A stretch of 64,000 nucleotides of DNA from Candidatus Bathyarchaeia archaeon (GTDB taxonomy: Archaea; Thermoproteota; Bathyarchaeia; 40CM-2-53-6): NCBI GenBank assembly GCA_050013255.1, contig JBEKFP010000003.1, positions 32,001 to 96,000 of the forward strand, given 5' to 3'. Under the pieces are notes generated by a model. It was not told the DNA's origin. It saw only the letters and a list, made by a program, of their open reading frames with translations, and did no database searches. Positions 9,730-32,808 of the stretch are shown piece by piece; position 1 is the stretch's first letter, and each line of letters opens with the position of its first letter. Made by a program: the position numbers and the translations under genes.

Positions 9730-9825
9730 ATGACCGAAAATAATTCTGGAAAATCGCCGGTTCAAATCCGGTCCGGCCCACCACTAAACTACTCGGGCGG
9801 AATTTCTGAGAAAATCTGTGCATAG
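9730..9825 (+). pseudogene. Putative integrase N-terminal fragment int(N) split by att
   Basis: ATG in repeat 3; MTENNSGKSPVQIRSGPP reads through the tRNA 3' half, as in SSV-type split integrases. Confidence 0.45.
9750..9783 (+). other. att site: 3' half of a tRNA (T-arm, acceptor 3' strand, ACCA)
   Basis: GCCGG-TTCAAAT-CCGGT CCGGCCC A CCA with no 5' half upstream. Confidence 0.85.
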
Positions 9826-11525
9826 TCAACTTGTTTCTTTCGTGGTCCCCACTTGTAGTAGGTGTAGATCGCTGCTCCGATCAGGACGAATAGAAGATTG
9901 AATCCTAAGGCTAGCCAGTTGTAATAACCTGGAGCTAGCATATTGTCGTCAAAGATCGAGGTAAGGACCTCCCACCCGATGACCAAATTAGCCACGAGAC
10001 CCGCGAGGCCAATTGCTGCAACCCCAAGTTTCCCGCCTGGTTTGAAATATGCACTATCATAGAAGCGCCGTTGTCTGAACGGGAAGAGTAGGACTGCAAA
10101 CGAAAAGAGGCTGAGAAAAATCACAGTTAGAAGGTCTACGTAGGTGACGCCATACGAAAAGAAGGCGTCCATGATAGAACCTATGAGCCCGCCTGGGTTC
10201 CAACTGCCGCCAAGGGCAGCGACGCAAACTCCTCCACAACCTAACCCTGCTAATCCGCCAAGAATCGCGACGAGGACGACTGCGACAAAGGGAACGTGGA
10301 ATCTGTTAAGCTTGGCGAAAGTCTCAGGGAGGACTCTGTCGAATGACATGGCGAAAATCAGTCTTGAACCGGCCAACATCAATGCTGGAATTTCGTTAGC
10401 CGCCAACAGTAAGGGAAATAGGAACAAGATGACATTGAACGAGCCTAGTCCCAAGCCTTGAGCACTCATCATGGCCAATATTTGAACAAACATCCGGATT
10501 GGAGGAAGATGCGCCTGTGTGAGGCTCGTCGAAAATGTGAGGAAAGAGTAGGCTCCAAGGAAGCTCCACCTATCACCGTTGGGCAATATCGTTTGCCCTA
10601 CCGATGCAGCGGCGTCAGCTGAGATCCACGCCACGCCTACGAGAACCACGATAGCGACGAGCGCGCCGATTATTAGAACCTTAGGGAGATTCCTCTTAGG
10701 ATCCTTCACTTCTCCTAGAACAAATGTGGTTGAGGCGACTGCACCCCAGACAAGGAAAAAGCCAAAGTAAGACCAGACTGCCCAAATGAAACTGGCTGAA
10801 ACCGCTGTCCAATAGTCTCCGACGTTTGCTGAGTCAAGCCCCTGAGCGAGAGCAGCTTTTACGTATGTGTCTGCGGTCACTCCGGGTACTCCTTGTGTCT
10901 GCGCCCACATTGAAATTCCTCGCTCTAGCACGGCAGGGTTCATTATTGTGATGGCGAACAAACATAGAACGTAAGCAGTAATTATGACAGAAACCCAGAA
11001 GAGTACTTGCATCAAATACCCCGATACTCTCGTGCCAAACGCCGAGATCACTGCAAAAACGACTATGAGTATTAATCCGCCGACGGTTGGGTCGACGTCG
11101 TTAAGAATCGGACTTGCCGGGAAATAGAAATGCTGAGCGAGGCTCACGGCAATTGCGCCTAAATAGAAAGAAATCGTTAGGAATACAAGCCAACCCGCGA
11201 TGAAGCCCATGAATGGGTTGATAATCCTTGAAATCGCAAGATATCCTCCGCCAGATCGAGGCATTGCGCTACCTAAGATCGAATACCCAACCACCATTGA
11301 TAAGGCCAGAATTCCCACTATGATGAGGGCCATCACGGAAGGTGGAATTCCAGCGAACCATAAGTTCTCAGGCAAGGGGATGTTGCCCGTAGCAGAGAAG
11401 CCTCTCGCGAACGGCCAGAAGGCCCAACCCGTAACTGCGAGAATAATTACGACTGCAGTTAACGGACCAATTTCTCTAACTAGTCCCGTAGTTTCTCTTA
11501 CAAACGACTTCTTTCCATCAAGCAA
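9789..11525 (-). CDS. APC family amino acid permease
   Basis: FVRETTGLVREI start, AMPRSGGGY, GEVKDPKR, RLIFAMSFDRVLP, EIPPE end; ~12 TM. Confidence 0.9.
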   Translation of the reverse strand: MLDGKKSFVRETTGLVREIGPLTAVVIILAVTGWAFWPFARGFSATGNIPLPENLWFAGIPPSVMALIIVGILALSMVVGYSILGSAMPRSGGGYLAISRIINPFMGFIAGWLVFLTISFYLGAIAVSLAQHFYFPASPILNDVDPTVGGLILIVVFAVISAFGTRVSGYLMQVLFWVSVIITAYVLCLFAITIMNPAVLERGISMWAQTQGVPGVTADTYVKAALAQGLDSANVGDYWTAVSASFIWAVWSYFGFFLVWGAVASTTFVLGEVKDPKRNLPKVLIIGALVAIVVLVGVAWISADAAASVGQTILPNGDRWSFLGAYSFLTFSTSLTQAHLPPIRMFVQILAMMSAQGLGLGSFNVILFLFPLLLAANEIPALMLAGSRLIFAMSFDRVLPETFAKLNRFHVPFVAVVLVAILGGLAGLGCGGVCVAALGGSWNPGGLIGSIMDAFFSYGVTYVDLLTVIFLSLFSFAVLLFPFRQRRFYDSAYFKPGGKLGVAAIGLAGLVANLVIGWEVLTSIFDDNMLAPGYYNWLALGFNLLFVLIGAAIYTYYKWGPRKKQVDYAQIFSEIPPE

Positions 11526-11661: not shown

Positions 11662-12588
11662 GTGATGTCGAGACTGAACCGACGAAATAAGTGCACGTGT
11701 CTGATATTCCTCTTTGTCCTTAGCGTGTTGTTCGTTCCTACCCTGGTACACGGCACTAGGACTACACAGCCTTTCGAAGCGAGAGTCTTGGGCAATCCAA
11801 TGCACCAATCCGTCCCACAACAGGCAGACCCGGTTCAGGTACTCCATACCTTTGAAGTCCAACTCAACGCCCACAACGTCAATGCTGCTCTTGCACTTTT
11901 CACTGACAATGCGGTTGTTTACGATCCGACAACCATCTCCTGTTACGGCGGAACAGGGTCCTCTTGTGAACCCGGGAATATCATCATCTCCTATACTTCC
12001 AAGACGCAGATTCGAGGCTGGCTCCAATATCTCGCGCAGGTGGATATTGAAGTAAAAGAGGCCGGAGTCCCCCAAATCGCAGGAAGCAATGTGACTTGGA
12101 CTTGGCAGGTTTCCAACAACGGATACCGTACCCTGAACATCGCTCCGCTTGTGGGTGCCGGTGAAGCCATCCTTCAGGGTAACTTGATCAAGTACTTCAG
12201 CTTTCGACTTAGCGCAGATTCTATAGGAAAACTTACAGCCGCACTCGCGGCCTCCAGTCGGTCTCCATACTCCGTCGCTGGTGTGAGTATTGCGTTCAGT
12301 CTTGTTGCTCTCGGCATGGTTTTCCCCGGGGTAGCGGTGTATTATGTTTCGAGAGTCAAGCGACTCTTTGCTAGTGTGCCGAAGCTTGACAAACCTTGGA
12401 TATTGTTGGGCGCGGGCGTAGGGGTCTTATTTGTTTCAGTGCTGCTCGTGGCCTTGAGAGAAGTCGCCGCAATCTCGACAAGTGTTGCAGATCCACTCTT
12501 TGATGTGATATTGGCAGTCTGCGCTTTCTTTGTAATGTCGGCAATGATACTTATGAAACGGGTTATGATCAGTGAGCCCGATGAATAG
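11662..12588 (+). CDS. Membrane sensor: signal peptide, NTF2/SnoaL-like ectodomain, 3 TM
   Basis: DPVQVLHTF..LNAHNVNAALALFTDNAVV is SnoaL-like; C-terminal 3-TM module. Confidence 0.7.
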   Translation: MMSRLNRRNKCTCLIFLFVLSVLFVPTLVHGTRTTQPFEARVLGNPMHQSVPQQADPVQVLHTFEVQLNAHNVNAALALFTDNAVVYDPTTISCYGGTGSSCEPGNIIISYTSKTQIRGWLQYLAQVDIEVKEAGVPQIAGSNVTWTWQVSNNGYRTLNIAPLVGAGEAILQGNLIKYFSFRLSADSIGKLTAALAASSRSPYSVAGVSIAFSLVALGMVFPGVAVYYVSRVKRLFASVPKLDKPWILLGAGVGVLFVSVLLVALREVAAISTSVADPLFDVILAVCAFFVMSAMILMKRVMISEPDE

Positions 12589-12889
12589 CCCACTTCTATT
12601 CGCCATAGCTGCTATCGGGCTCGTCTGCTCGGCGGTCGCGACATATTATGTCATCCGCGTGAAAAGCGCCTTCGCTGGTCTCCCGCGCCTTGAAAGGCCT
12701 TGGCTCCTGCTTGGGCTTGGGGTCGCGTCTTTGTTTGTTGCGGCTTCGACGATTCCGATGGGCGAACTATCACTTTCTGTGGGAATCCTACATTTTATTC
12801 AGATCGCGGCTGTGGTTTCGGCTGCTTTCTTCATCTTGACTGCGATGGTGACGATGAAGCAGGCCTGGACAATTAGGGAGAGCGACTAG
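12572..12889 (+). CDS. 3-TM membrane protein, paralog of the C-terminus of the upstream gene
   Basis: YYVIRVKSAFAGLPRLERPWLLLG vs YYVSRVKRLFASVPKLDKPWILLG. Confidence 0.8.
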   Translation: MSPMNSPLLFAIAAIGLVCSAVATYYVIRVKSAFAGLPRLERPWLLLGLGVASLFVAASTIPMGELSLSVGILHFIQIAAVVSAAFFILTAMVTMKQAWTIRESD

Positions 12890-12890
12890 C

Positions 12891-14111
12891 ATGCAAGCTA
12901 CCGTCCCAGGTTTCAAGATGCAGATTCCAGGCTTAGAGGACCGCATCTTCCCGCCTGGAACTATCGTGCTACTGACGGCACGTCCTGGAACAGGAAAATC
13001 AGCCTTCGCCAAACAGTTCTGCCTAGAAGGATTGAAGAGGAGTGAGCGAGTAGTTGCAGCTTTGACTGACATTACAGCAGATAGCTTCCGCAAGAAGATC
13101 GGCGTCGAAACATCAAATCTAGACGTACTTGACTTCCTACTCGAGAAGCCAAACGGAGTTAATGAGATCTCAATCAAGATGCACCAACTAATATCGAAGA
13201 CGCCCGGCCGACAGGTTCGACTGATTTTCGATTCACTGTCAACACTCGGCACGATGTTCAACCCGGAGTTGCTCTCACCTTGGCTCCTAGATCAACGTGC
13301 AAAGTTGTCGAAGACCTCCGCCATGGTATTGGCGTTGGTCATTTACGCAACTGGCATCAACCCACCAGCTGTCACCCGAAGCCTCCACACATTCGCTGAT
13401 GTCGTCCTAGAGATGAAGACCGATGAGACGAAAGAGGAGCCCGAGAGGCAATTCAGGGTCCTCAAAGCTAGGGACATCAGCCACAGCTCTAGGTGGGTGC
13501 CTTTCAAGATTACTGATTCGGGAATCGAGTTTAACGCTGTGCCTGCCAACTTAGACCAGTTGCTGCTCAACGTAGACCAACGAATCTCTGAACGTGACCG
13601 AGTGTTGGCCACGGTTATGTTCGTAGACATTGTTGGATCAACAGAAAGGGCAACGCAGCTTGGTGATCGCCAATGGCAGGGCATTCTAAGAGGCTACTTT
13701 GGCTTGTTGCGCAAGGAGCTCAACCAATTTCGAGGTCGAGAGATCAGTACCACGGGGGATGGCATGCTCGCGATTTTCGATCGGCCTGAGAGTGCGGTTC
13801 GATGTGCCTGCGCAGCTAGAAACGCAGTTCGTTCCTTAGGCCTCGAAGTGCGCGTCGGCCTCCACACTGGAGAAGTGCAGCTTGCAGAAGGCAACATCGG
13901 AGGGATAGGCGTCCACATCGGCGCCAGGGTCGCCTCGCAGGCGAGTCCCGGCGAAGTATTAGTGTCCAGCACCGTCAAGGACTTAGTTTCAGGATCAGGC
14001 ATCGTATTCGATGATCGCGGTTTGCGAGCACTGAAGGGTGTTTCGGAGGAATGGCACTTATTCGCAGTTGTGTCCGATGAAACTCGGAAAGATGACACTG
14101 ACGCCCGCTGA
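12891..14111 (+). CDS. KaiC/RAD55-like ATPase fused to class III nucleotidyl cyclase
   Basis: Walker A ARPGTGKS, Walker B LIFDSLS, RVLKAR; cyclase motifs TVMFVDIVGST, TGDG, RVGLHTGE, GIGVHIGARV. Confidence 0.9.
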   Translation: MQATVPGFKMQIPGLEDRIFPPGTIVLLTARPGTGKSAFAKQFCLEGLKRSERVVAALTDITADSFRKKIGVETSNLDVLDFLLEKPNGVNEISIKMHQLISKTPGRQVRLIFDSLSTLGTMFNPELLSPWLLDQRAKLSKTSAMVLALVIYATGINPPAVTRSLHTFADVVLEMKTDETKEEPERQFRVLKARDISHSSRWVPFKITDSGIEFNAVPANLDQLLLNVDQRISERDRVLATVMFVDIVGSTERATQLGDRQWQGILRGYFGLLRKELNQFRGREISTTGDGMLAIFDRPESAVRCACAARNAVRSLGLEVRVGLHTGEVQLAEGNIGGIGVHIGARVASQASPGEVLVSSTVKDLVSGSGIVFDDRGLRALKGVSEEWHLFAVVSDETRKDDTDAR

Positions 14112-14157
14112 TTAGAGTAGAGTCTAGACTGGCGTGATCAGGCTTTCAACCAGTTCG

Positions 14158-14712
14158 CTAAGTTTCTTTGGCATATCGTTCGGAGAATTTGATGAAGACT
14201 GAATTGTTGGTCACTTCAATTTTAGGCTCAGTTCCGAGAGCCGTGCGTATGCCTGCTTCGTAGACTCGTTTCAAATGATTCGAATATTTGGAGCCCAGCC
14301 CATGTTGCAAGGTTATGCTGTAGTTGCCACCGATTCTCTCGACCTCGCACTGGGTAGTGCCAACATATTTGGAGAGTCTTTCACAAAAGGCGCAGACAGT
14401 TTCTGCATCTATCCGTTTATGCCAGAACCTCACCATCTCAAGGAATGTCGACGGGGCCTCTTCTGTCGCGGCCAAATATGTTTGCTCATCCATCGCCTCT
14501 ATCATTCGCTCGTAGTTGTTTCGTGGTATCGTGACGAAACCAAACTTTCGTGTGAAACGATCCCATTCAGCGTATTTGGTTAAGATCGATACAACTAGTG
14601 CGCTCACCGTTCGGTTCTCAGCGTTCGCATCTCTTTGTAGGAGTGCGTTCAACTCTTTGGGAATACGTACGTTTCTCAGTACGGTCTGGGTTTTTCGGTC
14701 GGCCAAACTCAA
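14158..14712 (-). CDS. Ribbon-helix-helix regulator with C-terminal ligand-binding-like domain
   Basis: RNVRIPKELNALLQRDA..TVSALVVSILTKYAEW RHH pattern. Confidence 0.75.
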   Translation of the reverse strand: MSLADRKTQTVLRNVRIPKELNALLQRDANAENRTVSALVVSILTKYAEWDRFTRKFGFVTIPRNNYERMIEAMDEQTYLAATEEAPSTFLEMVRFWHKRIDAETVCAFCERLSKYVGTTQCEVERIGGNYSITLQHGLGSKYSNHLKRVYEAGIRTALGTEPKIEVTNNSVFIKFSERYAKET

Positions 14713-14810
14713 TCATTATGTTTCACTCTGTTTTACTTTGTAACATTTGTGGTTACGTTGTGAGCCTATCACCTAAGTTCTCCCACTTAGAAATACGGGT
14801 TCGAAGACTC

Positions 14811-15263
14811 TTGAAAACTAAACTCGTCTTGGCCAGTATTCTTGTCGTTGTTATCGTAGTTGTCGCTGGTGTGTGGTTAATCTCTGGTCACTCCGGGGCA
14901 TCTACTAACGAGAAGATTCAGATTCCTTCTGGAGGGATAGTTGTCAATACCATAGCGGATCCGGCCGCTGGCGCAGGCATGGTGACTTGGACTACAGCCA
15001 CTCTAACTGTAGATAACATAGGATCGGTGCCTGTTACTATCTCAAGAATCTACGTGCAGGGCGCCGCTTACAGTTACAGTTCGACCGCGGCTCCCGGCAC
15101 ATTCTCCGCAGCCTCTAACCAAATTCAACCCGGACAAAGCCTAACCTTCACGATAACGGACTCCTCGCCAACTCCACTCACTATCGCCAACGAGAATGCG
15201 TGGAATTTCAAAGCAGTTACTTCCAACGGCACTGAAGCAAGCACCGCATATAGTTGGGGGTAA
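14811..15263 (+). CDS. Membrane-anchored secreted protein (pilin/Ig-like)
   Basis: N-terminal TM; LTVDNIGSVPVTISRIYV and IQPGQSLTFT motifs; start moved to TTG 14811. Confidence 0.7.
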   Translation: MKTKLVLASILVVVIVVVAGVWLISGHSGASTNEKIQIPSGGIVVNTIADPAAGAGMVTWTTATLTVDNIGSVPVTISRIYVQGAAYSYSSTAAPGTFSAASNQIQPGQSLTFTITDSSPTPLTIANENAWNFKAVTSNGTEASTAYSWG

Positions 15264-15592: not shown

Positions 15593-15695
15593 TCCGGTCC
15601 GGCTCACCACTGAACTAGTCGGGCGGAATTTCCGACGAGCTCCGTGTGTAGCTATTTTGTCTTCCCGAAGGACCTCATCTAGAATATACGTAGAT
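15593..15695. pseudogene. Decayed tRNA 3' end plus C-terminal remnant of APC permease
   Basis: TCCGGTCCGGCTCACCACT; minus strand IYVYSR*GPSGRQNSYTRSSSEIPPD* vs IYTYYKWGPRKKQVDYAQIFSEIPPE*. Confidence 0.8.
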
Positions 15696-15727: not shown

Positions 15728-17356
15728 TTAGGTTTGGATGTTCTGGAGTAAGAGCCTGATTTGGCTGTTCGCTAGCTTTGATGCTACAACGATTACTGCG
15801 AATGCGAATATGAAGCCAAGAATCGCTAGTTGTGGTAGAATCGTGCTGTATACCATAACCGAGATTATGATCGGCGCGGCGGTTAACATCGCTGAAACGA
15901 TCCCGACGAGCATTCCCGTGAGGGAACCCCAGACACTGACGTAACGGCTGCGTATCATTTCACGAAAGTCGGGAAACCTAGTCCCGAAACACATTCCAAT
16001 CGCTGACTCCTCAAACACAACTGCTACTCCCAGCGCAAGAACAAGCCAGAAGTAGGTTGCAAGGGATCTTAGCAGAAAACTCAGCACCGCCAGCATGCCC
16101 ACGCCAAACAATATGCCTAGGAGTATTGCAAACAGCATTTTCGCCATCAGAAGCCTACTTGGTTTTATCGGCGCGGCGTAAAGGTTCCACACGGCGTATC
16201 CCTCCTGCCCTATGCTTGTCATTGAGAGGAGTCCAACGAAAATCGCTATGGGGAGTAAGTACAGAGGGATGATGACCAACAATCCAGGCGCATCGGGCAT
16301 CGATTGGCCCCCCATGGGGAAGAATGAGATGCCCATCGAGATGGCTAGGACGAAGGGAATCGCCAAGAACCTAGCCATCTCCCTCCTCCTCGCGAGCGAA
16401 CGCAGGTCCTTCCGAAGAATTGCCGATTCAGCTACCCCAATCAAAGGTAACCGGAAACCTATGTCGCGATTGTGATAGGTCTGGGGAGAGAGCTTGATTG
16501 AGACGGGAATTGGAACCCAGAACTTCGCGCGCAATCTCGTTGCCACCGCGAATAACGCCAGCGTGAAGAGTGCTGAGAGGCTTGCAAATTCAAGAAATGT
16601 GAATATGTTGCCTTGGGAGACGCCGAGGACTGCAACTGAAGGCCACACTACGGGAACGAACCATGCAACCCTCACCGTTTGAACCACGCTCTGGAGAAGG
16701 TACCCGATTATTTGTCCGCTGAAGAGCAACTGAACGAAGACAAGCATGATTATCGTCAAGGCGAGGCGGAAGAATATTCCAGAGCGTCCGCTCTTCTTGT
16801 AGAAACTTGATGAGATACGGTTGGTTATTGTGTCCAGCACTTCAACGACGCAGGATCCAATTGCTAGGGCGATAGTCGCCATCAGGGCTGCAGCAAGCCA
16901 AGAAGGAGCCATCCCGAGGATTAGTGCCGGTCCAAGCAACAACCCCAGAAGGAGGCTGAGCATGAATGAGTAAATGTAGGATTCAGATAATGTGGAGGCC
17001 GCAACATACTCTGTGGGTGAGATTGGAAGCCAATTCACGATATCGGTATTCAGCGATTGGATTGGTTGGCTAATTTCGTACAGAACTCCGAAAAGGATGA
17101 CGGCGGAGGCAATACCCACGGGTACCCCTGCCAAAGCGCTTGCTTCGATACCGGCGATGGCTTCTAGAAAGAATGGGGGGCCCCTTGAGAGCAGTAAATA
17201 GCCGGCTAGGCCGAGACCAACAAGCAGTACCAAGTCTACTGCTAGGATGATTCGGGGTTCTCCGAATATTCGGGCCAAGATTTTGTTTCGTTGAGTTCCC
17301 CGAATTTGAGAGCGCGTCAAGACGACGGCAAGCTTGTACACCGTCTTGATTCTCAT
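15728..17356 (-). CDS. ABC exporter membrane subunit
   Basis: Multi-TM; SIGQEG..LYAAPI motif; coupled to ABC ATPase. Confidence 0.8.
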   Translation of the reverse strand: MRIKTVYKLAVVLTRSQIRGTQRNKILARIFGEPRIILAVDLVLLVGLGLAGYLLLSRGPPFFLEAIAGIEASALAGVPVGIASAVILFGVLYEISQPIQSLNTDIVNWLPISPTEYVAASTLSESYIYSFMLSLLLGLLLGPALILGMAPSWLAAALMATIALAIGSCVVEVLDTITNRISSSFYKKSGRSGIFFRLALTIIMLVFVQLLFSGQIIGYLLQSVVQTVRVAWFVPVVWPSVAVLGVSQGNIFTFLEFASLSALFTLALFAVATRLRAKFWVPIPVSIKLSPQTYHNRDIGFRLPLIGVAESAILRKDLRSLARRREMARFLAIPFVLAISMGISFFPMGGQSMPDAPGLLVIIPLYLLPIAIFVGLLSMTSIGQEGYAVWNLYAAPIKPSRLLMAKMLFAILLGILFGVGMLAVLSFLLRSLATYFWLVLALGVAVVFEESAIGMCFGTRFPDFREMIRSRYVSVWGSLTGMLVGIVSAMLTAAPIIISVMVYSTILPQLAILGFIFAFAVIVVASKLANSQIRLLLQNIQT

Positions 17357-18126
17357 CGGGTAAGTGCCTCGACGATATCGCGGGTATCAGAGGTTCCTGT
17401 CAGCTTCAGGAATATTTCTTCAAGCGTTGAGCCAGATGCACCTCCTTTTGCCCTCAGTTCCTCCGAAGTCCCTTCGGCCAAGACCTTCCCGTCATACATG
17501 ATTACGATTCGGTCGCAAATAGCATCGGCTATTTCGAGAACATGCGTACTGAAGATGGTTGGAATGCCATCATCCCTCAGCTTATGGATCAAGTCCTTGA
17601 CTATACGTGCGCTGCGTGGGTCCAAGGCATTGAGGGGTTCATCCAGAACCAGAATTTGTGGGCGATGGAGTAGGCCCGCTATAATTGCCAGTTTCTGTTT
17701 CATCCCCTGTGAATATCCATGAATCAGCTCGTTTTCTCGGCCTTCCAAGTCTAAGGCCTTCAGGAACTCCGAGGTCCGCTCTTGCTTTACCTTGGCCTCA
17801 AGTCCGTGGACATCCGCAACGAAGTCAAGGTACTCTATCCCCGTCAAAAACTCGTACAGCCTAGGGCTTTCGGGAACGAAGCCAACAATTTTCTTGACCG
17901 CGATCGGGTCTTCAGCAACATTCACCCCTTGAACTAGAATGCTGCCAGCGTCAGGTTTCATGATCCCTACGATGATTTTCATTAACGTAGATTTGCCGGA
18001 GCCGTTTGGGCCTAACAACCCAAGAACTTGGCCGGTATCCACGGCGAAACTGACACCTTTGACGGCCCTTATCGTGCCGAAACTCTTGGCTACGCTGTCA
18101 ACCTGAAGTGCTTTCACTAATGCCAC
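17353..18126 (-). CDS. ABC transporter ATP-binding protein
   Basis: GPNGSGKST, YSQGMKQK, LDEP, STH; start revised. Confidence 0.95.
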   Translation of the reverse strand: MALVKALQVDSVAKSFGTIRAVKGVSFAVDTGQVLGLLGPNGSGKSTLMKIIVGIMKPDAGSILVQGVNVAEDPIAVKKIVGFVPESPRLYEFLTGIEYLDFVADVHGLEAKVKQERTSEFLKALDLEGRENELIHGYSQGMKQKLAIIAGLLHRPQILVLDEPLNALDPRSARIVKDLIHKLRDDGIPTIFSTHVLEIADAICDRIVIMYDGKVLAEGTSEELRAKGGASGSTLEEIFLKLTGTSDTRDIVEALTR

Positions 18127-18213
18127 CAATCCTCCGCAACCATACGATCTATCCATTCCGGTGAAACCGAAAGAGCTTAGAAAAACCTCGCGTTCCACCC
18201 TCCCGACCCAACA

Positions 18214-31417: not shown

Positions 31418-32808
31418 GCCCCAGTCCGGTATTTGGGATGATACTGTTTGATTGTTGCTGGGTCTACGCGTTTAAGCTCATTTTCAGGAAGCGCGGCTAG
31501 AAGGTTCCATCCTATCTCTAGCGTTTTCTCAATGTCGCGGTTCTCGTATTCACCTTGCCCAATAAAGCGCCGCTCGAAATCGTCAGCAAACTTCAGGTAT
31601 ATCTTATCCCTAGCTGAGAGTGCTTCTTCTCCCACTACGGCCACTAGGTCTCTGAAGGCTCTGCCCTCGGCGTATGCGTAGTAGAGCTGGTCGGAAACTT
31701 CCCTGTGGTCCTGCCGTGTCCTTTCCTTACCAATGCCTTCGCGCATAAGCCGGGAGAGGGACGGAGATACGTCGATTGGTGGGTAGATACCTTTTCTGTG
31801 TAAGCCCCTGTCCACGATCAATTGGCCTTCGGTGATATAGCCCGTGAGGTTGGGGATGGGATGCGTGATGTCGTCGTGGGGCATTGTCAGAATGGGCATT
31901 TGAGTTATTGATCCCTTCGCACCCCGGATTCTTCCGGCGCGTTCGTATATCGTGGATAGGTCAGTGTAAAGGTAGCCTGGGTAACCTCTTCGTCCGGGGA
32001 CTTCTTCCCTGGCCGCCGAAATTTCCCGTAAGGCTTCAGCGTAATTAGTCATGTCAGTGATGATGACGAGTACATGCATGTCTAGTTTGAATGCGAAGAA
32101 CTCTGCCGCGGTTAAGGCCATGCGTGGGGTGAGAATTCTTTCTATCGCTGGGTCGTCGGCTAGGTTGACGAACATTGTAACGTGTTCGAAGGCGCCTTGC
32201 TTTTCGAAGTCTTCCCTGAAGAATCTTGCTTCATCTGCAGTGATCCCGATTGCCGCGAATACGGTTGAGAACGGTTCGCCTGTCCCCCGAACGCTTGCTT
32301 GCCGTGCGACCTGAGCAGCAACGCGATTGTGGGGGAGCCCCGCGCCAGAGAACAATGGGAGTTTCTGTCCCCTAACGAGAGTATTCATTCCATCTATAGC
32401 CGAAATACCGGTCTGAATGAACTCCCGGGGGTAGGTCCTTGCGTAAGGGTTAATGGGCGAACCGTGGACGTCCCAGTAATCCTCTGGAATAATCCGAGGG
32501 CCGCCATCTATCGGGTTACCGCTTCCGTCAAGAATTCTGCCTAACAGGTCGCTTGATACGGGCAGCTTGACGGTTTCACCTAGGAATCGGACGCTTGTGG
32601 AAGGGATGTCGAGGCCAGATGTTCCCTCGAAGACTTGCACAACTGCTAGGTCACGGCGAACTTCGAGAACTTGGCCGCGTCTTTCTTCGCCTGTGGGTGT
32701 GCGAATTCTAACTAGTTCGCCGTACCCAACGCCCTTGACGTTTTTGACGAAGAGAAGTGGGCCTGAAATTTCATTAACCGTTGAATATTCGCGAACGATA
32801 ACGGACAT
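31414..32808 (-). CDS. atpB: A/V-type ATP synthase subunit B
   Basis: [26 protein letters not shown]. Confidence 0.98.

Follow-up and report, generated by a model that had tools for sequence, protein, structure and literature searches.

How might an archaeon couple an event sensed at its membrane to the synthesis of a cyclic nucleotide? The question is raised by a gene cluster in a 64,000-nucleotide (nt) stretch of DNA (the window; positions 32,001 to 96,000, forward strand, of contig JBEKFP010000003.1) from assembly GCA_050013255.1 of a peat-dwelling Candidatus Bathyarchaeia archaeon, a 2.46-Mb genome in three contigs that is rated 100% complete. A 2023 review records cyclic AMP (cAMP) in archaea and states that none of the archaeal proteins for its synthesis, degradation, or binding has been characterised (PMC10249747). 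Makarova, Galperin and Koonin (2017, as cited in PMC5847659) put forward KaiC-like ATPases as central hubs of archaeal signalling, of which few worked examples exist (PMC5847659). An earlier note, made from the letters of the window alone, described window positions 11662-15263 as a five-gene signalling module consisting of a membrane protein with a SnoaL/NTF2-like ectodomain and three transmembrane (TM) helices, a stand-alone paralogue of its 3-TM unit, a KaiC-like ATPase fused to a class III cyclase, a convergent ribbon-helix-helix (RHH) regulator, and a divergent secreted protein; it suggested a heterodimeric receptor with a direct cyclic-nucleotide output. We find that the locus as a whole is best explained as a lineage-specific transmembrane sensor-ATPase signalling module that has a cyclase output in the window's lineage, a reading that we place somewhat above even odds, with a probability of roughly 0.55.

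The membrane proteins and the ATPase form a conserved core

All five open reading frames (ORFs) of the proposed set are present at the positions originally assigned to them (Table 1). The three plus-strand genes are closely spaced: the start of the 105-amino-acid (aa) gene overlaps the 308-aa gene by 17 nt, and the 406-aa gene (12891-14111) begins 2 nt past the stop of the 105-aa gene. The 184-aa minus-strand gene is convergent with this operon.

The 308-aa protein (subunit A), for which an ATG at 11665 is the likelier start, consists of a signal sequence or TM segment (residues 11-29), an ectodomain (~55-200), and three TM helices (208-226, 247-265, and 279-297). By the positive-inside rule, the loop between TM1 and TM2 (227-246, containing YYxSRVKxLFAxVPxLxKPW) and the C-terminal tail (298-308) are cytoplasmic. 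The match of subunit A to Pfam SnoaL_2 is weak and below threshold (E 0.018; 16 bits against a cut-off of 27). An AlphaFold model of the ectodomain built with 27 homologues had a predicted local distance difference test (pLDDT) score of ~90 and adopted the cone-shaped NTF2/ketosteroid-isomerase/SnoaL fold, with a Foldseek probability of 1.0, a target TM-score of ~0.8, and root-mean-square deviations (rmsd) of 2.4-3 Å. Among 480 PDB matches at E<0.001, the best were ketosteroid isomerases and NTF2-like proteins, and SnoaL-like cyclases were matched as well, bearing out the fold that had been proposed for this domain. The NTF2 fold typically binds small hydrophobic molecules.

The 105-aa protein (subunit B) is the proposed stand-alone paralogue of the membrane part of subunit A, with 44% identity to residues 212-307 over 99 aa (E 2e-20). 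The invariant residues of subunit A (P222, Y227, Y228, V232, L235, F236, P240, L242, P245, W246, and M298) cluster in the loop and tail, and those of subunit B are F34, R39, L40, P43, W44, M95, K96, W99, T100, and E103. In both membrane proteins, the best-conserved parts are thus the cytoplasmic loop and tail (MKxxW/M...) rather than the ectodomain or the helices.

The N-terminal domain of the 406-aa protein scored 63.8 bits against the KaiC family PF06745 (cut-off 26.6), and its C-terminal domain scored 43.4 bits against the Guanylate_cyc family PF00211 (cut-off 21.9), so that both halves of the predicted fusion pass their thresholds. The ATPase motifs are intact, with Walker A GTGKS at 33-37 and Walker B RLIFD at 110-114, and G35, K36, S37, and D114 are invariant. 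In alignments to PH0284 and KaiC, the invariant T59-D60 pair aligns with the catalytic Glu-Glu of the KaiC CII domain, and one carboxylate is therefore kept. The protein is no circadian KaiC: it has a single KaiC-type domain and scored 13.3 bits against 546 for TIGR02655 and 47.7 bits against 408 for NF006799, and every NCBIfam KaiC-type model gave at most 50 bits against cut-offs of 215-546. The ATPase domain is also far from its nearest relatives outside the family. A word-indexed search of 5.8 billion proteins returned only 31 matches at E<1e-5, and in an exhaustive HMMER search the scores fell, after six proteins, from 328 bits to generic KaiC-like matches below 85 bits.

Full-length relatives of the fusion form ~24 clusters in the 5.8-billion-protein collection, which also holds close ATPase-only relatives of ~225 aa. 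A metagenome scan, annotated by BLAST against the window proteins, yielded 49 loci, mostly from peat and wetland samples. The conserved order in these loci is a permease, the NTF2-3TM gene, the small 3-TM gene, and the ATPase with or without the cyclase domain. One or both membrane genes lie directly upstream of the ATPase in every locus with upstream DNA (30-odd metagenome loci), subunit B is present in all main-clade loci with upstream DNA, and the 3-TM genes come before the fusion in each of its homologues that has upstream DNA, so that the refuting case named in the earlier note, fusions never linked to the 3-TM genes, does not apply. In an outgroup clade, the locus comprises only a single NTF2-3TM gene and the ATPase; in genome G011, the ATPase is accompanied by a 3-TM-only gene. 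As reconstructed from these loci, the core is a single-domain KaiC-like ATPase with an NTF2-ectodomain 3-TM protein and, in most cases, the 105-aa 3-TM paralogue. The operon trio of the earlier note therefore stands, within a conserved core that is narrower than it proposed, as the cyclase is accessory, and next to a permease that it did not mention.

The module is lineage-specific and confined to one uncultured Bathyarchaeia genus. Close ATPase orthologues occur in 3 of 61 species-representative genomes of relatives, a 3-TM profile matches 3 of 401 Bathyarchaeia genomes, which are exactly those with an ATPase orthologue, and phylum-level searches at E≤1e-15 did not find the fusion in 400 other genomes.

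Both membrane proteins are predicted to dock on the ATPase

We modelled a three-chain complex of subunit A residues 200-308, subunit B, and the ATPase domain, with a separate alignment for each chain. Over three runs, the interaction prediction score from aligned errors (ipSAE) was 0.75, 0.74, and 0.75, compared with 0.00 for the best of three controls; contacts agreed between runs at ≥88%, and the pLDDT of the partners was ≥83. Of 80 solved complexes 58 reach this ipSAE mark, as do 2 of 110 mismatched pairs, counts that are only a rough guide here, because three chains with their own alignments were used. We know of no solved complex of a membrane pair of this kind with a KaiC-like ATPase, and recall of a known structure is therefore unlikely to explain the score.

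The modelled contacts involve the loop (235-240) and tail (301-304) of subunit A, the loop (33-40) and tail (98-105) of subunit B, and residues 89-94, 123-140, 158-168, and 194-195 of the ATPase, including the family-invariant segments PWLLDxR (130-136) and TRSLHxF (162-168). The model supports, without demonstrating, binding of both membrane proteins to the ATPase, through contacts that would be made by the most conserved motifs of each family. The suggestion of a heterodimeric receptor thus gains support from a prediction with controls, in which two subunits contact the ATPase.

A bacterial-type cyclase domain is fused to the ATPase

The cyclase domain belongs to the Rv1900c/LipJ type. It scored 192.7 bits against the NCBIfam LipJ model NF058673 (cut-off 800), with a match to profile positions 289-448 only, which are the cyclase part; the 406-aa protein has neither a full-length match nor the N-terminal alpha/beta-hydrolase of LipJ, a bifunctional lipase/cyclase, and is accordingly no LipJ protein. 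The domain matched Rv1900c (PDB 1ybt) with E 2e-44 over 164 residues, with the VHIGARV motif in both, and is ~60% identical to the corresponding domain of this Mycobacterium tuberculosis adenylyl cyclase. Identities to bacterial alpha/beta-hydrolase-cyclase proteins from many phyla are 60-69%. A search of genome contigs with the 406-aa protein alone returned only relatives of the cyclase domain, most of them bacterial. Because the archaeal domain is so highly identical to bacterial proteins, these comparisons suggest that it was acquired from bacteria. It is the only PF00211 match, and thus the only class III cyclase, in the genome. In seven genomes of the same family (G022, G025, G026, G029, G030, G033, and G035; one of the same genus as the window's genome, the others of sister genera), we observed up to seven cyclase-domain proteins each, of 640-1100 aa.

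Both metal-binding aspartates are present in the window protein, D246 in FVDIVGST and D290 in TGDG. The canonical Lys/Asp pair of adenylyl cyclases and the Glu/Cys pair of guanylyl cyclases are absent, with S286 at the Lys position and N335 at the Asp position. At the transition-state positions, H342 replaces the usual Asn and R346 is present, and both residues are invariant in all 24 fused clusters; K382 follows, and is kept in 22. Rv1900c is reportedly an active adenylyl cyclase in which the corresponding non-canonical residues are dispensable. D246 and D290 are both retained in 12 of the 24 clusters, including the window and all of P0002-P0010. The window's cyclase is probably active.

A maximum-likelihood tree of 73 ATPase domains comprised an unfused outgroup of 11, a subclade A of 27 that is essentially all fused, and a subclade B of 35, which includes the window and contains 26 unfused and 9 fused members. 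Because the domain junction is the same in subclades A and B, the history is most simply read as a single gain and several later losses. Judging from the tree and the catalytic residues, the cyclase is an accessory add-on that is dispensable and often degenerate: it has been lost at least four times among close relatives, and it is missing from 26 of the 35 nearest of these in the tree as well as from every member of the outgroup clade. The direct cyclic-nucleotide output of the earlier note is plausible for the window, but not as the general function of a family in which the cyclase is often absent and half of the fused clusters lack a metal-binding Asp.

An RHH regulator follows the fused genes

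The Pfam RHH match of the 184-aa protein is below threshold (14.8 against 26 bits). In its predicted structure (pLDDT 82), VIA comparisons placed an RHH fold at residues 7-60, with Z scores of 5-6.4 and rmsd values of 1.7-2.3 Å over 44-51 aa relative to TacA1, CopA, PutA, and NikR; DSSP left the strand unassigned in the monomer model. The proposed RHH regulator is thus real at the level of the modelled fold. Its C-terminal alpha/beta domain (60-184, ~120-125 residues) gave Z scores of 6-8 against VirS-N, Bet3, DmpR, PoxR, and H-NOX, including V4R/XylR-N-type folds. Foldseek searches with the same model returned mostly de novo designed proteins.

The RHH gene lies downstream of the operon in all eight fused loci with downstream DNA (the window and L072 to L078); in the 15 unfused main-clade loci with ≥700 nt downstream, it is never adjacent. 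The protein belongs to a large paralogous family in Bathyarchaeia, and close orthologues (65-74% identity) without an adjacent KaiC gene occur in G029 and G026, from another genus, and in G012, from the same genus. An MBL-fold hydrolase with a weak match to the anti-Pycsar Apyc1 type adjoins the orthologue in all three of these genomes, and a stand-alone protein of the PF00027 family (E 2e-22), which binds cyclic nucleoside monophosphates (cNMPs), adjoins it in G029 and G026. Two independent RHH neighbourhoods, compared by sequence, thus point to cyclic-nucleotide signalling. As the window's genome has a single PF00211 protein and lacks PF00027, there is room for the C-terminal domain of the RHH protein as a cyclic-nucleotide receptor, a role that we infer.

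The regions upstream of eight RHH orthologues, one of them from another genus and with different neighbours, align with conserved blocks that include GTTAC-N7-GTAAC, a pattern that fits predicted autoregulation.

As a separate observation, the neighbourhoods of the three orthologues without a KaiC gene (L122:824-2951, L129:126-1353, and L127:289-846, in G029, G026, and G012) look like a small cluster for sensing and degrading cyclic nucleotides. We also observed a palindrome, GTAAC-ATTTGTG-GTTAC, at 14735-14760, upstream of the RHH gene in the window, as a candidate operator.

Proposed mechanism and its alternatives

In the mechanism that we propose, an extracytoplasmic NTF2-fold domain would sit on a 3-TM bundle paired with the paralogous 3-TM subunit, and the conserved cytoplasmic loops and C-terminal tails of this pair would, as modelled, hold the KaiC-like ATPase at the membrane. 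A ligand-dependent change in the membrane pair may then alter the nucleotide or oligomeric state of the ATPase. In the window's lineage, this state would control dimerisation of the cyclase and hence synthesis of cAMP or another cNMP, and the RHH regulator, with its ligand-binding-type C-terminal domain, would most probably read this nucleotide signal. Where relatives have no cyclase, the APC permease would be the best candidate target of the module. The most specific form of this scheme, in which an NTF2 receptor pair and a KaiC-like ATPase switch gate the cyclase and the resulting cNMP is read by the RHH protein through a new cNMP-binding domain, is a tentative proposal that we consider rather unlikely to hold in every part.

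Several points weigh against a sensor-ATPase module with cyclase output. All of the evidence comes from sequence comparison and predicted models, and the complex model is itself a prediction. Because S286, N335, and H342 replace the Lys/Asp pair and the catalytic Asn, the sequence of the cyclase predicts neither its activity nor its product. One or both metal-binding aspartates are lost in 12 of the 24 fused clusters, with replacements that include Y, N, A, H, and R. The fused state requires five changes on the ATPase tree, of which starred branches force at least four, and the window's nearest relatives, with ATPase identities of up to 92%, have no cyclase, both of which mark the domain as dispensable. 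The sensor-fold Z scores of 6-8 for the RHH protein are rated middling by VIA, and de novo designed proteins score equally high. Profile searches found no PF00027 cNMP-binding domain, and thus no classical receptor, in the window's genome. Finally, the RHH gene remains adjacent in L075, L076, L077, and L078, whose cyclases have lost a metal-binding Asp. The link to the RHH gene therefore cannot depend on catalysis everywhere, and may reflect inherited synteny or a protein-protein link.

One alternative is that the cyclase-homology domain is mainly non-catalytic, serving in dimerisation or in binding of a nucleotide or partner, and that the RHH protein is controlled by direct contact, with no diffusible nucleotide even in the window's lineage. 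We regard this as unlikely. Half of the fused clusters lack a metal-binding Asp and nevertheless have domains 58-66% identical to that of the window protein, with H342 and R346 invariant and K382 nearly so, and by this comparison the domain is still constrained where catalysis is probably gone; the four loci with an Asp-less cyclase and an adjacent RHH gene, and the missing PF00027 receptor, fit the same picture. However, the window's own subclade (P0001-P0010 and the window) always keeps both aspartates and the GST motif after the first of them, and this retention without exception suggests selection for catalysis there. Moreover, RHH orthologues elsewhere adjoin a cNMP-binding protein and a hydrolase, neighbours that point to a diffusible nucleotide, and Rv1900c, in which the catalytic Asn is likewise replaced by His, is reportedly active as an adenylyl cyclase.

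The APC permease is the module's most constant neighbour in the main clade. A permease homologue (45-90% identity) adjoins 23 main-clade loci in two arrangements, divergent upstream in 18 and convergent downstream in 5, and the tree-placed main-clade loci without a permease all have ≤352 nt of upstream DNA. This adjacency raises the possibility that the membrane pair and the ATPase are an accessory or regulatory subunit of the permease, which senses substrate and gates transport, and that the cyclase and RHH genes are a later, incidental insertion. The absence of both from most relatives agrees with such a history, as does a decayed permease 3' end beyond the RHH and beta-rich protein genes, as would be left if the insertion had separated the ATPase gene from a permease once located downstream of it. 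In the outgroup clade (L053, L054, and L108-L115), however, a permease is nearby in only 1 of 10 loci, and we judge it quite unlikely that the module is a permease subunit, an idea that is compatible with our preferred explanation as applied to the unfused relatives.

Anti-virus defence of the Pycsar kind, by a cyclase and a membrane effector, is very improbable: the patchy distribution (3 of 401 genomes), the position of the module beside an integrated element and within a decayed repeat, and weak PycC matches of ~20 bits are outweighed by a LipJ-type match about ten times stronger (193 bits), by membrane proteins with neither a cNMP-binding domain nor a PADLOC match, by the absence of a cyclase from most family members, and by a constant neighbour that is a permease and no defence gene.

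Comparison with known systems

The sensor-ATPase module shares features with several known systems. Like the single-domain archaeal KaiC-like ATPases ArlH/FlaH, PH0284, and SSO2452, its ATPase has one RecA-like domain of ~225 aa with Walker A and B motifs, and archaeal KaiC-like ATPases have in common with it an operon link to sensor and output parts. It differs from those three in its partner, a new 3-TM family, and in having Thr-Asp in place of the catalytic Glu-Glu. The grafting of a bacterial-type output domain onto archaeal KaiC machinery follows a general pattern described by Galperin et al. (PMC5847659).

Rv1900c (LipJ; PDB 1ybt and 1ybu) and its bacterial relatives also carry the non-canonical His where a catalytic Asn is usual and, at the position that specifies the substrate, a residue other than Lys; the N-terminal partner there is an alpha/beta-hydrolase, whereas here it is a KaiC-like ATPase and the host is an archaeon. 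Bacterial receptor-type class III cyclases, such as mycobacterial Cya/Rv1625c, likewise combine an extracytoplasmic or membrane sensor with a dimerising catalytic domain. In receptor-type class III adenylyl cyclases the membrane anchors or sensor domains are covalently attached (PMC5699072). Here, in contrast to the Rv1625c type, the sensor is carried by polypeptides of its own, and the helical, HAMP, or cyclase-transducer element gives way to a P-loop ATPase domain between membrane and cyclase. Pycsar systems also place a class III-type cyclase next to small membrane proteins, but in the window these proteins are upstream, carry an ectodomain, and lack a cNMP-binding domain, the PycC score is at most ~20 bits, and the cyclase is missing from most of the family. 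PADLOC returned weak matches of a generic kind for the cyclase and none for the membrane proteins, lending no support to a defence system.

The combination of a KaiC-like ATPase with a class III cyclase is not unique to this family. The ESM Atlas lists two archaeal clusters with KaiC and class III cyclase Pfam families, and a separate family with a zinc-ribbon linker is found in Nitrososphaerales-like genomes, where two representatives (P0290 and P0292) were confirmed by Pfam; two full-length copies in genome G732 were located only by exhaustive HMMER search. These KaiC-zinc ribbon-cyclase proteins have the same domain order in another archaeal class, but are 23% identical overall to the window protein, with a Cys-rich linker and a divergent, non-LipJ cyclase, and their neighbours are a ParA/MinD-like ATPase and a multi-TM protein rather than NTF2/3-TM or RHH genes. 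Most likely, judging from these differences, they represent an independent fusion. At L181:1495-3858, around one of the two G732 copies, we observed that the ParA/MinD-like ATPase gene precedes the fusion without a gap, that a multi-TM protein of >455 aa follows, and that a receiver-domain gene is nearby. Seven Nitrososphaeria-type cyclases chosen by length contained no KaiC domain and were set aside. The automatic JGI names for members of the window's family read "class 3 adenylate cyclase/KaiC...". Our literature search found no paper characterising either KaiC-cyclase family, in line with the earlier note, which did not recognise a cyclic-nucleotide output coupled to this receptor pair as characterised. 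What is new here is the 3-TM/NTF2 receptor family, its modelled docking on the ATPase, and the series of fused-intact, fused-degenerate, and unfused relatives.

Other features of the locus

Table 1. Features of the window at and around the sensor-ATPase module (window coordinates; strand + or -, with a point where none is assigned).
Feature	Position	Strand	Remarks
68-nt direct repeat, left copy (permease 3' end and adjoining sequence)	9767..9834	.	
APC-superfamily amino-acid permease, 578 aa	9789..11525	-	divergent from operon; Pfam AA_permease_2, E 3.6e-21
Putative receptor subunit A, 308 aa	11662..12588	+	NTF2-like ectodomain and 3 TM helices
Putative receptor subunit B, 105 aa	12572..12889	+	3-TM paralogue of the subunit A membrane part, without ectodomain
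KaiC/RecA-like P-loop ATPase domain	12891..13565	+	residues 1-225 of the 406-aa protein; PF06745, 63.8 bits
Class III nucleotidyl cyclase homology domain, Rv1900c/LipJ type	13590..14111	+	residues ~234-406; PF00211, 43.4 bits
RHH one-component regulator, 184 aa, TTG start	14158..14712	-	assigned from predicted structure
Intergenic region, candidate promoter/operator of the RHH gene	14713..14810	.	conserved blocks; putative operator function
Probable N-terminally anchored, beta-rich protein, 150 aa	14811..15263	+	hydrophobic segment after TTG; outside the conserved module
68-nt direct repeat, right, decayed copy	15593..15660	.	

The last ORF of the proposed set (14598-15263, plus strand) probably starts at TTG 14811, giving a 150-aa, beta-rich protein with one N-terminal hydrophobic anchor. 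It had been described as a divergent secreted or surface protein, and the ORF and its anchor are indeed there, but it is no conserved member of the module: a weakly similar gene occupies this position in L072 (33% identity over 140 aa) and L075, and an unrelated gene of 258-286 aa does so in L074, L076, L077, and L078. A pilin assignment was rejected, as the UpsA match is weak (E 4e-4; 20.5 bits against 130) and a typical class III signal-peptide cleavage motif is absent. The 258-286 aa protein adjoining the RHH gene in four fused loci (L074:6848-7621, L076:4547-5404, L077:6898-7674, and L078:6529-7371) is conserved, starts with MSFxNFxELExEIGRI, and has no Pfam match; a 36%-identical paralogue lies elsewhere in L078.

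With 78% identity between them and a spacing of 5826 nt, the two copies of the 68-nt direct repeat bracket the region from the permease to the beta-rich protein. The repeat may be a relic of a second, downstream permease, as in L087, L088, L090, and L097, or alternatively of an insertion by which the cyclase and the RHH gene arrived. On one metagenome contig (L106:3-3592), the end of a KaiC-cyclase gene is followed by an opposite-strand permease and, immediately after the permease and without intervening membrane genes, by a second, shorter KaiC-cyclase-like ORF; this arrangement may be a duplicated or rearranged module. A scan of the region for sigma-70 promoters and terminators, which is not meaningful for an archaeon, gave nothing above shuffled sequences.

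Farther downstream (15728-18198, minus strand), a gene for a 542-aa multi-TM protein without a Pfam match overlaps an ABC-transporter ATPase gene (PF00005, E 1e-29) by 4 nt, and the two probably form an ABC-2-type exporter pair. A homologue of the 542-aa protein recurs downstream in loci L081, L084, and L101.

Implications for archaeal signalling

The distribution of the module, in one uncultured genus, limits its general reach. Within that genus, it is a compact case with a defined sensor fold, a modelled docking surface, and a candidate downstream regulator, and an example of a bacterial output domain grafted onto archaeal machinery. Close relatives provide natural "on" variants, with both aspartates, and "off" variants, in which an Asp or the whole domain has been lost. 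The module thus offers a testable candidate route to cyclic-nucleotide signals in some archaea. If the ATPase does gate a receptor cyclase whose product is read by the RHH protein, this would be the first defined path from synthase to receptor for a 3',5'-cyclic nucleotide in archaea, and would give a mechanistic example of a KaiC-like "signalling hub".

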